A stretch of DNA of 64,000 bases, taken from contig NC_043006.1 in NCBI RefSeq assembly GCF_006345805.1, positions 84,692,001 to 84,756,000 of the forward strand, given 5' to 3'. Source of the stretch: Octopus sinensis. Its lineage: Eukaryota. Within the stretch, counting starts at the first letter, position 1; each line of letters starts with the position of its first letter. Of this stretch, positions 1,191 through 61,409 are shown piece by piece. The notes under the pieces were generated by a model that worked only from the letters and a program-made list of their open reading frames with translations, was not told the DNA's origin and did not search any database. Made by a program: the position numbers and the translations under genes.

Positions 1191-1400
1191 AAATATATAT
1201 AAAGTTAATCCAAACAAGAAAGCACAAAAAAACATAACTACGCGAGGACGTGGAACAAATATAGTATTATTGGACGCTCAGGAAAGAGGGAAGAAGGAGG
1301 GTTTAACGTTTCGAGCGGAGCTCTTCGTCGGAAACATAGGAGAAGGAAAGATCCAGAGAAGGGAAGACAGAGGAAAAAATCGCCAACGGTACACACAAGG
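1191..1400 (-). mobile_element. Penelope pseudo-LTR-like repeat carrying a minimal hammerhead motif
   Basis: Abuts the PLE ORF in the same orientation; a second copy lies at 37730-37935 (+). Confidence 0.7.
1301..1335 (-). ncRNA. Minimal type I hammerhead-like motif (U4C core variant)
   Basis: Minus strand reads GUUU CCGACGA A GAGC UCC GCUC GAAA CG UU AAAC: helix I GUUU/AAAC, helix II GAGC/GCUC, palindromic helix III (ACGU). Confidence 0.65.
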
Positions 1401-1630
1401 TATATATATATATATATATATATATATATATATATTATTTTTTATTTATGCATTGGTTTATGTCTATCACTGTTTGAGTTGCATAATAGTGGTTTTATCT
1501 CTAATTCATATTATATATATATATATATATATATATATATATATATATATATATATATATATTATATATATTATATATATATATATAATATATATATATA
1601 TATATATACATATATATATATATATATATA

Positions 1631-2034
1631 GGCGTAGGAGTGGCTGTGTGGTAAGTAGCTGGCTTACGAACCACGTGGTTCCGGGTTCAGTCCCACTTCT
1701 ACTATAGCCTCTGGCCGACCAAAGCCTTTATGAGTGGATTTGATAGACGGAAACTGAAAGAAGTCCGTATATGTATGTATGTATGTATGTATGTATGTAT
1801 GTATGTATGTATGTGCGTGTGTATGTGTGTATACGTATGTGTGTCTGTGTTTGTCCCCCCAACATCGCTTGACAACCGATGCTGGTGTGTTTACGTCCCG
1901 TAACTTATCGGTTCGGCAAAACAGACCGATAGAATAAGTACTAGGCTTCCAGACAATAAGTCCTGGGGTCGACTTGCTCGACTAAAGGCGGTGCTCCAGC
2001 ATGATCACAGACAAATGACTGAAACAAGTAAAAG
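1631..2034 (+). mobile_element. tRNA-derived SINE family A
   Basis: A/B-box-like head ggcgtaggagtggctgtgtggtaag...ggttcagtccc, internal (GTAT)n, tail ...gactgaaacaagtaaaag; more than 10 copies in the window. Confidence 0.85.
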
Positions 2035-2059
2035 CGATATATATATATAATTCCAATTC

Positions 2060-2225
2060 TCAGAAAACGAAAGACAAAGACAGGTGAAAGACCCAGGTGT
2101 ATTAGTTTAACGATCGGGAAGAATGGAAAATTTTTTTACGTTTCGAGCCAACGCTCGTCGACAGATGGGAATAAGAGAAACGAAACCAACAACGGAGAGA
2201 GAAAAAATGTGTAGGGCTTAACGTT
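2060..2225 (-). mobile_element. PLE-derived short repeat with hammerhead-like motif (CUGUCGA core)
   Basis: Minus strand ctgtcga c gagc gttg gctc gaaa cgta; homologous copy at ~60320-60505. Confidence 0.5.
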
Positions 2226-57410: not shown

Positions 57411-57780
57411 TATTACCTCTGCCTTAGCAAAGGTGGAGGTATTGTTTTCAGTCATGTTCGTTTGTTTGCCCGTGGACAAGATATCTCAAGAACCGTTGGA
57501 TGGATTCGGATGAAACTTTCAAGGATGTTTGGCCTCTTGACTGGTACGAACTGATTAGATTTTGGGATTAATCCAGTACCGGATAAGGATTCTGGATTAT
57601 TTTTACATTATCTTTTACTTAATTTTCAAGAGCTGTCAGGTTCATTTTTAGTATTTTCGTTTGTGAGAGCAGTCGAGTTTATTTCAGATATTCTCATTTT
57701 AAAAATCATCTCTGGTTAATCGTTCAGAGGACGTTGGTGTTGCCTTGGTGGAGGTTTGCACTCTCTGAGTGATCTTGTTA
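57411..57780 (+). mobile_element. Helentron/HINE-like non-autonomous element
   Basis: Sub-terminal inverted repeats acctctgcc / ggtggaggt, 3' hairpin cactc-tct-gagtg, inserted in (TTA)n. Confidence 0.7.
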
Positions 57781-59687
57781 TTATTATTAGGCAGCAAGTT
57801 AGCAGAAAAGTTAGCAAACCAGGGAAAACGCTTAATGGCATTTCATCTATCTTTACATTCCGATTTCAAATTCTGCCAGGGTCAATAAATCAAGTACCAG
57901 TTGAATACTGAGGTTGATGTAATTGATTATCCACCTCCCCTGAATTTCAGGCCTTGTGCCTATAGTAGAAAGGATTATTATTATTAAGGCAGAGCTGGCA
58001 GAATCATTAGCACAACAGGCAAAATGCTTAACAGCATTTTGTCCATCTTTATGTTCTGAGTTCAAATTCTGCTGAGGTCAACTTTGCCTTTCACCTATTC
58101 AGGGTTGATAAATCAAATACTGTTGAACACTGGGGTCAATTTAATCAACTCATCTCCTTCCCTATCATACTGGTCCTATGCCAAAATTTGAAATCATTAT
58201 TATTATTATCATCATAAGCATCATCATCACCATCATCATCATTATTATTATTATTATTATATTATTATTATTATTATTATTATTATTATTATTATCATTA
58301 TTATCATAGGTTTGCTCAAGTATGGTTGACCTTCGACCAAACAGTAACAACTGTTGCAAAGTCACATATCATGCCTCTGTTGACTCCTATTTGGGGGTGA
58401 GAATCTGGTTGTATTCTTCACTCACTTTATTTTTAATAGAAAAAAACCCAAGTTACATCCTGGTTGGTAACTCACACTAAAAAGGGTTTAAAGGGAAGGA
58501 GAGAGAGAGAGAGAGAGAGAGAGAGAGAGAGAGAGAGAGAGAGAGAGAGAGCAAACTGATAAAATACAGTTGTTATATTAGATAAGACAAGTGAGTCATG
58601 ATAGACTCTGGGAAGGATTGTCTCTCCCAAAATAAATCTTCCCCTTCAAGTCTAGGCATCTGGAAACGATCACATGTTCTGATTCTGATACCATTAAGGT
58701 ATCAGCCTACTCCCTTCCTTTCAGTCACGGTAAAATCTGGAACTACCAGCTATACATTACATTATAGAGTTAGAGAGGTAGCTTGACCTGTGAGAAATAA
58801 CAGCCTAATTTCTCTCTAATTACATTCCCCAGTCTTGATAAAAGAAGAATGGACACATTAAATGATGTAGTCCTAGATGCACAATGTCTGAAAGACCTTT
58901 ATGAATAGGTCTGCTTGAACAGAGCTGATCAAAGGACTCTCCTAAGCTATGGTCCCTTAAGGCCAGTTTCATGCATTCTGGCGGGATACATATTGCCAAT
59001 TCATCACAGGATTACTCATTTTTGGTAGATGGACAGGAGCAATGTGAAACAAGGTGTCTTGCTCAAGAACTCAATGCAACACCCAGTCATGAATAAGAAA
59101 GCTCAATCTTACAATCATAAACACAACACTCTAACTAATAAAATACGCACCTCCACTATTTACAGACACACACATACTTATTCTATCCCCATCTCTTTTA
59201 TTGAACTAAGTTATGGGGACATAAACACACCAACATCAGTCGTAAAGCGATGGGGGGCAAACACACACACATTAATCTATACCTGTATATAGAAACACAA
59301 TGAGCTTCTTTCAATTTCTGTCTATCACATCCAATCACAAGGCTTTGATTGGGCTTAGGCTATAGTAAAAGACACTTGCCCAAGGTGCCATGCAGTGAGA
59401 CTGAACCTGGAACCATGTAGTTGGGAAGCATCCACCTACATATATTATACATAGAAATATATATATATATATGTATTTATATATGAGTATATAAATATGT
59501 ATATACATATATATATGTATATACTTATATATACTTATATATATATGTATACACATCCATACGTATATATATTATATATACATATATATTATATATACAT
59601 ATATATGTATATACTGGTAAAAACGGTAAGATAACAAAAGAAAGAAAGAGACCTCAATATTATGTAAATAGAATATTCTAGCAAAAA

Positions 59688-59725
59688 CTGTCCGACGAAC
59701 GGCAACGTGAAACTCAGAGTAACAG
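59688..59725 (+). ncRNA. Type I hammerhead-like motif (U4C), best-formed copy
   Basis: CUGU CCGACGA ACG GCAA CGU GAAA CUC A GAG UA ACAG: all three helices present, GNRA loop II, GUA triplet. Confidence 0.7.
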
Positions 59726-61409
59726 GTTTTGTTGAATTTTCTGCTGCTTTAAATAAAGTATATATATACTGGAGTAAACACATAAATGTGAAACAAGGTG
59801 GAAAAAAGAGTACTGAAATACCAGGGGTAGAGTAATATGCTTTATTTCAAAGCAGCAGAAAATTCAACAAAAATGACTAATACACACACACACACACATA
59901 TATATAGCAATACAGGAGATGTACTGACATTGATTACAAAGAATATGAACAACAGAGAGGGGTTTGTGCTTACTAAATTGAAATGTAGTAGAGTTTTAGA
60001 TATTTAATATCATGAGGTGAAAAGAGAGAAAAAAAACTTTGATCGACTAAAACCATTTACGTGATTAATGAGTGAGCAAAAACTCCCTATACAAGTGTTT
60101 TAAGGTCTAAAAACAACAGATAAATGAGGTGACTCTAACAAGATTGGTTAATTAAAATTCTACAATAATGTAGATAATGCATACACACCACATGAACGTG
60201 CATGCACACACACACACTCTCATACACATTCATTTTTGTCCTTGCTTCATATATATATATATATATATATATATATATATATACATGTATGTATGTATGT
60301 ATGTATAGTTCCAATTTACAGAAAACAAAAAATGAAGGCAGGTGTAGGAACAACAAGCAGGTGTATTATTTAAATGTTTGAGAAGAATAGAAAAGTCTTT
60401 TACATTTCAAGCCTATGCTCTTTGACAGAAAGGATTAAGATGAAAAAAAAATTGAGAGATAATGAAAAAAAAAAAGGAGAGAAAAAATGTGTAGAGATTA
60501 ACGATAGATAGATAGATAGATAGATAGATAGTGTCTATTGTTTTTATATATCTTGCTGTCTCCTTCTCTCTTATTCTTTAACCTTTCTTTCTCTTTTTCT
60601 CTTTTATTAAATCTTGATTTTTTTAACTATTTCTTTATTTTCTTCCACTTTACCTTTTCGCCCAGTCTTTTCTTTATCCCTCTCTCTCTGCCTCACCTTC
60701 TCTCTCCCACCTTTTTCTTTCTTCTTCAGTGAATGCATCGCTTTTTGTTTTTTTCAGGTACTTCTTTGTCTTACTTATTCATTCACCTTTCTTTTTTTCT
60801 TTCTTTCATTCAGTAAATCTCTCTCTCTCTCTCTCTTGTTGTTGTTAATCTCAGTCTCTCTTCTCTCAACTACTCAAGAATATGGCTACCACCACCACCA
60901 CCACCACCCTACCACCACCATTGCCACCAATACAGCCATCACTTCCACCGCCGCCACCACCATCACCCCTACCTCTATTCTACAGTACCTTTGACATTAT
61001 TCCAAGCTAGTAGTTAGTCAACACAGTTTTAGATAAATCCACCGCTGGTATTTCATTAGCGAGCTACAGACAATAAACAAACTGATCTTAACTAAGTGTC
61101 GGAACAAACAGGTGCTTCTAAAATGAATGTCTTGGCCAGTTTCTTGCTGTCAGATTCTGTTGCTTTTTCTTTAATTGGATTTATTGTCATTTAGAAAATG
61201 GCTAAAGTACCTCTGAGGTCAAAAACTTCACATTAAACACTAATAAAGAATTGTTAACTCTTTTTTATAATTATTCCAATTCAGTGATTTGAATTCCAAT
61301 TTCTTTTTGTTTTTAATTTTGCAACAAGAAAAACTAATTAAAATAAGATAAGCGTACAATTAAATAAAATTAAAATTAAATATAATTTCACCAAAATGCA
61401 ATTTGATAT

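Follow-up and report, generated by a model that had tools for sequence, protein, structure and literature searches.

Hammerhead motifs in a 64-kb window of the Octopus sinensis genome probably mark the 3' ends of truncated Penelope-like elements

Background

Minimal type I hammerhead ribozymes have been described in the pseudo-long terminal repeats (pLTRs) of metazoan Penelope-like elements (PLEs; Cervera and de la Pena 2014, PMC4209133), whose endonuclease-bearing (EN+) members combine a reverse transcriptase (RT) with a C-terminal GIY-YIG endonuclease (Craig et al. 2021, PMC8557442). Hammerheads are also carried by retrozymes of the non-LTR type (LTR, long terminal repeat), which lack an open reading frame (ORF) and span a reported range of 170-450 nt (PMC7229834; 10.64898/2026.07.22.740005), and a knotted, non-circularly permuted arrangement has been published as the type-SGC hammerhead (Eckert et al. 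2023, PMC10085705). Here, we analysed 64,000 nucleotides of Octopus sinensis DNA (contig NC_043006.1, positions 84,692,001 to 84,756,000 of the forward strand), hereafter referred to as the window, for which an initial annotation had listed eleven hammerhead-like motifs. We consider it very probable that these are minimal type I hammerheads of PLE 3' ends, a link established for three families and likely for the rest, present as short, 5'-truncated and mostly decayed copies in TA microsatellites, with cutting predicted only in intact source transcripts and likely as dimers.

Results

All eleven motifs were found with matching coordinates and strands, on the minus strand at 1301-1335, 2134-2168, 3446-3502, 6441-6477, 29944-29978 and 60397-60432, and on the plus strand at 9516-9559, 20392-20497, 23956-23989, 37797-37831 and 59688-59725, in a window with many microsatellites and interspersed repeats. 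With a strict type I descriptor allowing at most one core change, three sites were retrieved in the window, while 30 shuffles (block-wise, dinucleotide) averaged 0.07, and a descriptor with a wider helix II likewise retrieved three versus 0.1 across 20 shuffles; this is an excess and not the equality with shuffled sequence that the initial annotation had named as refuting. Most of the listed copies were missed by the strict scan because they are decayed. Genome searches with each site (40-41 scored matches per query; 40 scored candidates for family C) placed 10/11 sites in multi-copy interspersed repeat families, namely A (1301 and 37797), B (2134 and 60397), C (59688), D (23956), F (3446), G (9516) and H (20392), with 29944 being a distant relative of family A (66% identity). 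The site at 6441, which has just two weak relatives whose similarity lies over the motif itself, is the least secure of the eleven. Core and helices are intact at 1301 and 59688 only, and the other nine copies carry lesions relative to the family consensus or nearest relatives, either of CpG type or, at 3446, a deletion taking C3 and half of helix I, in agreement with the earlier view that most copies are decayed.

Majority consensuses, built from 8-27 rows each for the profiles, gave a complete motif in every family, composed of helix I, the core, often one extra A, helix II, GAAA, a palindromic helix III and UH. Exact CUGANGA and GAAA occur in few individual copies, so this architecture, which had been reported at all sites, is restored by the consensus. 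Across eight consensuses, the differing stems retain pairing as described before, with 28/32 Watson-Crick pairs in helix I versus 11.1 for strands exchanged among families (reached in 3 of 40,320 permutations) and 23/24 pairs in helix II versus 12.2 (2 of 40,320 as high), figures that are somewhat optimistic because the related families A and B were counted as independent and the choice of sites already favoured helix II. Helix III with loop 3 is palindromic in all ten consensuses, which bears out the self-complementarity noted earlier. The core is canonical in A2 (a subfamily of A), D, F, G and P (a PLE family described below) and carries one change in the others, U4C (CCGACGA) in A1/A3, C and H and A6U (CUGUCGA) in B; uninterrupted helix I is reduced to 2 bp in D and 1 bp in A3. 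The motifs come from many families; these are not all unrelated repeats as had been proposed, since A and B are homologous to each other. By nearest-neighbour energies, a double hammerhead is ~11-16 kcal/mol more stable than two monomers for C, F, G, H and P, and dimer action appears plausible for the source RNAs, not for the solo copies listed.

The coding sequence upstream of longer A, B and H copies encodes a PLE GIY-YIG endonuclease, and for A an RT as well. Following one long A copy upstream (locus L179) led to a GIY-YIG endonuclease, with a CX4CxxC linker and CCHH, and to a broken RT, ~2 kb ahead of the hammerhead; an A-like endonuclease was found ~0.9 kb upstream in 3/30 unbiased B loci, and a Hydra-type endonuclease upstream in 3/15 H loci. 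Because A, B and H reach PLE coding sequence in the 5' direction, their short copies are 5'-truncated insertions of coding elements and not non-autonomous elements, as the initial annotation had it, and among the type I families F alone fits a retrozyme. The window itself opens on the 3' part of a further PLE ORF (family P; 1-1195, minus strand), which spans the RT thumb to the GIY-YIG endonuclease with an in-frame stop near 1120 and continues outside the window, where its 3' untranslated region (UTR) has a canonical CUGAUGA hammerhead ~625 nt beyond base 1. In a longer P copy (locus L092), (TA)n lies on both sides of an inverted 3' arm, a 787-aa frame, the hammerhead and a tail, in that order. 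The best named relatives of the P protein are from the octopod Argonauta, its look-alike clusters carry the HTH_animal and GIY-YIG families, and a PDB sequence search with its RT part gave no match. The P source has a DKT motif, no CCHH and a C-terminal CxxC/CxH, which fits the description of the Hydra clade, the clade names Neptune and Hydra being assigned here from motifs and not from a tree. The RT with C-terminal GIY-YIG, tail, inverted 5' arm and (TA)n target that characterise EN+ PLEs were found at L092 and L179; no intact full PLE ORF was present among the copies retrieved.

Tails and inverted arms were observed in C, F and P, TATA follows the end of A in 25/28 copies (counted by eye), and C, D and G have shared upstream sequence that is variably truncated, like a 3' UTR. 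Tallies of copy arrangement, in which a few rows represent the same locus twice, gave 27 solo, 2 inverted and 1 tandem for B (30 loci), 15 solo, 15 inverted and no tandem for C (30 loci), and 23 solo, 5 inverted and 2 tandem for F (30 rows). The consensus cores, helices and PLE links agree with the earlier assignment to minimal type I hammerheads of PLE type. A candidate role of family A as the pLTR of the adjoining ORF at 1-1195 was ruled out, as A was present at 0/19 other P loci. Contigs of four runs, taken by guess to be RNA, cover family A, and transcript ends are not visible in them. Long A copies have also multiplied in a large local duplication (G000:C18:3.9-5.4 Mb; L160-L178), where several are without A13 or the whole core.

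We further examined the core variants (row counts at position 4 in A, C and H were made by eye). The first 100 of 10,896 exact matches of family A comprised 57 with C4, 39 with U4 and 4 with a change at the CpG partner. In a tree from which three rows were omitted as truncated or duplicate, and whose root is not secure, U4 is diagnostic of lineage A2 (support 100/97), and the youngest copies are found in the C4 lineages, A1 and A3. Position 4 reads CG, TG and CA in 83, 7 and 10 of 100 rows in C, and in 53, 24 and 20 of 100 in H (3 other). This symmetric CpG decay indicates that C4 is ancestral in C and H, so that U4C is the ancestral state there; in A it is the majority state. The U4 at 20396 in the window's H copy is accordingly CpG decay; the same explanation for the U4 at 37801 was dropped, since this base marks A2 (39 CTG versus 4 CCA, with linked diagnostics). 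In 30 unbiased copies of B, U6 was found in 30/30, position 7 was any of the four bases, position 17 was A or U and never G, and the other ten core positions were fixed in 28-30 of 30, as would be predicted under selection of source elements for a hammerhead-type core with U6. Genome-wide, B (15,668 exact matches) and A (10,896) rank among the most abundant families.

Across the 2.7 Gb of genome searched, the pattern core-N10-24-CGAAACGTH had 43,864 exact matches versus 463 for the reversed control, or one per 62 kb, and the window has two versus 1.0 expected. The strict descriptor gave 3 sites in the window versus 0.8 expected from the genome, and forty random 10-kb stretches held 5 strict motifs versus 0-1 in shuffles. 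A profile search returned 14 window matches, where 400 kb of random genome predicts 3.2, a difference that we discount because the profiles were built from window families; in 607 kb of retrieved loci there were 18 motif clusters, of which at least one is false. The motifs are therefore many, as the description of a dense swarm implied, but this density is the normal state of the genome and not a local feature, the window, which was chosen for its motifs, being at most few-fold above it. Elsewhere in the genome there is a very abundant ACGU family that has a canonical core and a longer helix II (e.g., G000:C1:46218-46253); the window contains no intact copy of it.

Family F differs from A, B and H in being an ORF-less tandem unit of a few hundred nucleotides with a type I hammerhead. 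Its 467-nt unit (32% GC; longest stop-free frame 66 aa) accounts for all copies by circular permutation, partial tandems occur, and more-than-unit inserts were found at 9/27 distinct unbiased loci (21/51 including loci picked by other queries). The hammerhead has a 6-bp helix I and a 4-bp helix II, and the predicted circle is highly paired (z about -7 versus mononucleotide shuffles). Of 71 aligned pieces, 60 end in two short zones ~83 nt apart, often one on each arm, which matches the two reverse-transcription start sites and the tail described for an anole PLE (PMC11167929). F is the only retrozyme-like type I family. We also observed, ~35 nt upstream of the core in the F consensus, a GT-AAGT splice-donor-like motif; several copies have their start or inversion point close to it. 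The pLTRs of PLEs are known to hold introns.

A second ORF-less family, with a 708-nt unit and no frame above 104 aa, is very young, all of the 40 best places being 99-100% identical, and forms arrays spaced 694-721 nt. One dominant fixed 3' end was found in all 20 loci mapped, with two exceptions in detail (L375 extends to a longer end, and the second arm of L368 ends elsewhere). In the window, one full unit lies at 12205-12941 (plus strand) and the remainder of the array at 14658-15034 (plus strand), where it stops at the fixed 3' end of the family before (TA)n. Both parts hold intact motifs, at 12453-12521 (identical to the young unit) and 14886-14954, with the block order of cleavage site, GAAA and CUGAAGA, that is, the SGC order with helices I, II and III and an intact core. 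Among relatives, there is covariation of helices I and III, both through substitutions and through matched indels, with C or A at position 17; the short, 4-bp helix II is constant among close subtypes. Five nucleotides separate A9 from helix II, in excess of the 1-2 nt of published forms, so we label the motif SGC-like and not a member of that type. The SGC order with 1 nt inserted occurs in two other sequence types of the genome, and no SGC-order match was obtained in a reversed control of 1.5 Mb; a loose SGC-like pattern had 8,653 matches, some counted more than once, versus 175. More motifs in the SGC order, with 1 nt inserted and with stems that differ, apparently from separate repeat families, were seen at L029 (minus strand, near 2431), L348 (minus strand, near 2162) and L408. 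The array is interrupted at 12942-14657 (plus strand) by an ORF1-only non-LTR-like insert with a CCHC ORF (13411-14529), ZCCHC3/RRM-like look-alikes and a flanking duplication of ~19 nt, which is single-copy in the loci examined and which we take to be Tx1-like.

In the window, family A is represented by an A1 stub at 1193-1401 (minus strand), whose hammerhead equals the consensus (CCGACGA, extra A, helix III ACGU) with a predicted cut after the U at 1305, and by an A2 stub at 37732-37944 (plus strand) with a broken helix III palindrome (ACAU). The B stub at 2040-2225 (minus strand) has the A6U core CUGUCGA and a damaged helix I, and that at 60305-60500 (minus strand) is decayed at four CpG sites. 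The C stub at 59676-59758 (plus strand) retains its core, with U4C, its helices and a GNRA loop 2, and is flanked by the reversed tail of a related PLE (59615-59675) and by a reversed tail-bearing C end (59760-59872). This tail belongs to another Hydra-type PLE, also seen at L309:1000-1190, L121 and L094, whose hammerhead is of the U4C type (CCGAAGA) and has helix III in common with C; the reverse fusion suggests two RNAs copied in one insertion or two insertions at one site. Family D forms a head-to-head pair at 23763-24030 (both strands) with decayed motifs at 23838-23870 (minus) and 23956-23989 (plus) and a canonical consensus (CUGAAGA, ACGU). The F fragment at 3305-3526 (minus strand) lacks C3 and the 5' strand of helix I in its motif owing to an internal deletion of ~96 nt. 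In the G stub at 9400-9585 (plus strand) the GAAA box is destroyed, the consensus being canonical with a 10-nt palindromic helix III, and inverted pairs of G-like 3' stubs occur at 27143-27387 (both strands; truncated within helix II, without the CUGANGA half) and 30048-30293. The H stub at 20245-20600 (plus strand; ends approximate) derives from the 3' UTR of a Hydra-type PLE, and its motif has a long helix II, a helix III of ACAAUUGU, and G8 and the G12 region decayed at CpG sites. Two old motifs on the minus strand are that at 6441-6477, with helix III ACAUGU and G12 lost, and the A-related one at 29944-29978, with core and GAAA decayed at CpG sites. Two extra type I motifs lie on the same strand, a decayed one at 5811-5896 with a long helix II and relatives whose helix I strands differ but remain paired, and a canonical-core one at 29458-29514 with one relative. 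Together with the PLE ORF at 1-1195, the motif at 23838 and the two SGC-like motifs, these were additional to the initial annotation.

Elsewhere in the window, the stretches 8185-8520 and 20658-20917 read like 3' ends of a restriction-endonuclease-type long interspersed nuclear element (LINE), and a motif candidate at 8185 (plus strand), within the end of this LINE-like coding stretch as judged from translation, is a chance match; candidates at 8656 (minus), 21609 (plus) and 47813 (plus) were likewise dismissed as chance. Short interspersed nuclear element (SINE)-like families are abundant (1612-2034, 24555-24992, 41629-41880, 5559-5810 and many more), three of them having 15, 11 and 4 copies in the window, and no type I hammerhead was found in the consensuses built for the abundant ones. 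A 62-nt minisatellite of 6.3 copies (36733-37128) and a 184-nt tandem duplication (45716-46082) both lie inside repeat copies.

Discussion

The source PLEs comprise coding sequence for RT and GIY-YIG, a long 3' UTR of low complexity, the hammerhead and a tail. Judging from the anatomy of the insertions and from the anole PLE (PMC11167929), the PLE protein would cut (TA)n, and reverse transcription would be initiated downstream of the hammerhead, from either of two fixed sites. Since target-primed reverse transcription would thus begin just downstream of the ribozyme, short products would keep it, and early termination would yield stubs of 100-300 nt, nearly always with the ribozyme and sometimes with head-to-head arms. 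Thousands of such stubs from many families are present, showing neutral decay mainly at CpG. The same machinery may also copy ORF-less RNAs, given the insertion anatomy of F and the 708-nt family, and their more-than-unit inserts with fixed 3' ends are what a template that is circular or tandem, and is set free by self-cleavage, would be expected to give. Selection on source elements would have kept the fold and tolerated U4C and A6U, and in view of this tolerance, slow cleavage is likely, which probably does not limit the rate of mobility.

Several observations weigh against this reading, in addition to the optimism of the pairing figures and the motif-based clade names mentioned above. Pfam gave no match for the P ORF, and its GIY-YIG match to the A endonuclease (E = 0.0021) is below the curated cut-off. 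C, D, G and the 6441 family showed no ORF link in the loci examined. Despite its youth, subfamily A3 contains a U-U mismatch in helix I. In the ACGU families A, B and D, the double hammerhead is not favoured over monomers, other dimers being 8-26 kcal/mol more stable, and 8/9 frog retrozyme dimers did not cleave in the experiments reported in 10.64898/2026.07.22.740005. Single copies fold no better than shuffles (z -1.3 to -0.1), and Rfam returned no hammerhead family among the matches listed for the window (150 of 320) or in three targeted scans; Rfam models do not cover such minimal hammerhead forms. Because single-copy folding and Rfam are uninformative here, support for the hammerheads comes from the family consensuses and cross-family pairing.

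These unremarkable energies and the lack of an Rfam match, together with false positives of the descriptor at 8185, 8656 and 21609, would be compatible with chance matches in AT-rich, repeat-rich DNA, but the shuffle and reversed-pattern controls, the multi-copy families and the pairing across families refute chance for 10/11 sites, and we give this explanation almost no credence. It is also improbable, if somewhat less so, that every family consists of non-autonomous retrozymes which spread by way of circular RNAs, as the initial annotation had read them. F and the 708-nt family fit such elements in anatomy, being ORF-less and circularly permuted with tandem and more-than-unit inserts, and the missing ORF link of C, D and G would agree, whereas A, B, H and P extend into PLE coding sequence, tandems are rare in B and absent in C, where half of the copies are inverted, and the upstream sequence of C, D and G is that of a variably truncated 3' UTR.

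A different view, compatible with an origin from PLE 3' ends, holds that the variant-core families (U4C in A, C and H; A6U in B) are catalytically dead relic folds kept for another job, e.g., PLE protein binding or palindrome-based RNA dimerisation. We regard this as unlikely, with more in its favour than the two preceding explanations. U4C and A6C are rare natural hammerhead variants with lowered activity (PMC3088659), hammerhead mutants of the anole PLE did not lower insertion in vitro (PMC11167929), A3 amplified recently with its broken helix I, and the variant-core B and A are among the most abundant families. Conversely, the B core varies freely just at positions 7 and 17, which catalysis leaves free, and never has G at 17; U4C supports viroid infectivity according to the same account of natural variants (PMC3088659), and one A lineage, A2, has the canonical U4. 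For the SGC-like motif at 12453 and 14886, it is a serious possibility, though rated below even, that it is not a cis-acting knotted ribozyme and that its stems arise solely by pairing of one unit with another in a tandem transcript or make up a non-catalytic fold. The 5 nt after A9, as opposed to at most one or two in the forms described in PMC10085705, the short, invariant helix II and the tandem arrays of the family point in this direction, while the covariation of helices I and III with matched indels, the restriction of position 17 to C or A, the two other sequence types with the usual 1-nt insertion and the empty reversed control argue against it.

A bolder reading, which we rate below even, is that the genome holds a natural mutational scan of the hammerhead core under retrotransposition selection, in which the RNA of a young protein-free retroelement, present in thousands of copies, would cut itself through a knotted SGC-like hammerhead with a 5-nt insertion and be copied by Penelope machinery, and in which the most abundant PLE families would run on the "forbidden" U4C and A6U cores. 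The role of hammerhead cleavage in PLE mobility, where the mutants of one element still inserted in vitro, becomes testable with the matched U4 and C4 lineages (A2 versus A1/A3) and the large A6U family. If the SGC-like motif cuts, the range of knotted, non-circularly permuted hammerheads would reach beyond environmental RNA to include an animal retroelement, with looser core geometry, which would be new for an animal genome. We found no report of octopus PLE hammerheads, A6U or genomic SGC in the open-access literature.

In comparison with known systems, the octopus motifs share with the minimal hammerheads of PLEs (PMC4209133) the type I form, the short helix I, the extra nucleotide between 9 and 10.1, the G10.1-C11.1 pair and the palindromic helix III, as well as thousands of mostly solo copies in many families, few of them ORF-attached, and opposite-strand pairs. 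The core variant described there is U3-A8, unlike the U4C of three families and the A6U fixed in one very large family here, neither of which was found in supplement file 2 of that study. The A and B sources resemble the Neptune clade (CX4CxxC linker and CCHH GIY-YIG) and the P and H sources the Hydra clade (DKT or CxC linker, no CCHH, C-terminal CxxC/CxH), with the difference that P is without a recognisable CxCX5C linker, and both have the (TA)n targets, tails and inverted 5' arms given for EN+ PLEs in the same account (PMC8557442). Family F is like non-LTR retrozymes (PMC7229834; 10.64898/2026.07.22.740005) in its lack of an ORF, GC content, type I hammerhead, partial tandems and highly paired predicted circle; unlike the elements characterised there, it is slightly longer than their reported range and, in place of long arrays, occurs mostly as 0.4-1.5 units that have inverted arms and the two-site 3' ends of PLEs. 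The motif of the 708-nt family shares with type-SGC hammerheads the block order, the joining of a helix I strand to a helix II strand by a short linker and the intact core letters. The type-SGC examples presented in PMC10085705 come from metatranscriptomes, none being from genomes of known organisms, whereas the octopus motif lies in animal genomic DNA, in a young retrozyme-like family, and has the 5-nt insertion after A9. The bulk of the motifs, by contrast, is a new host example of the known pattern of hammerheads at PLE ends.

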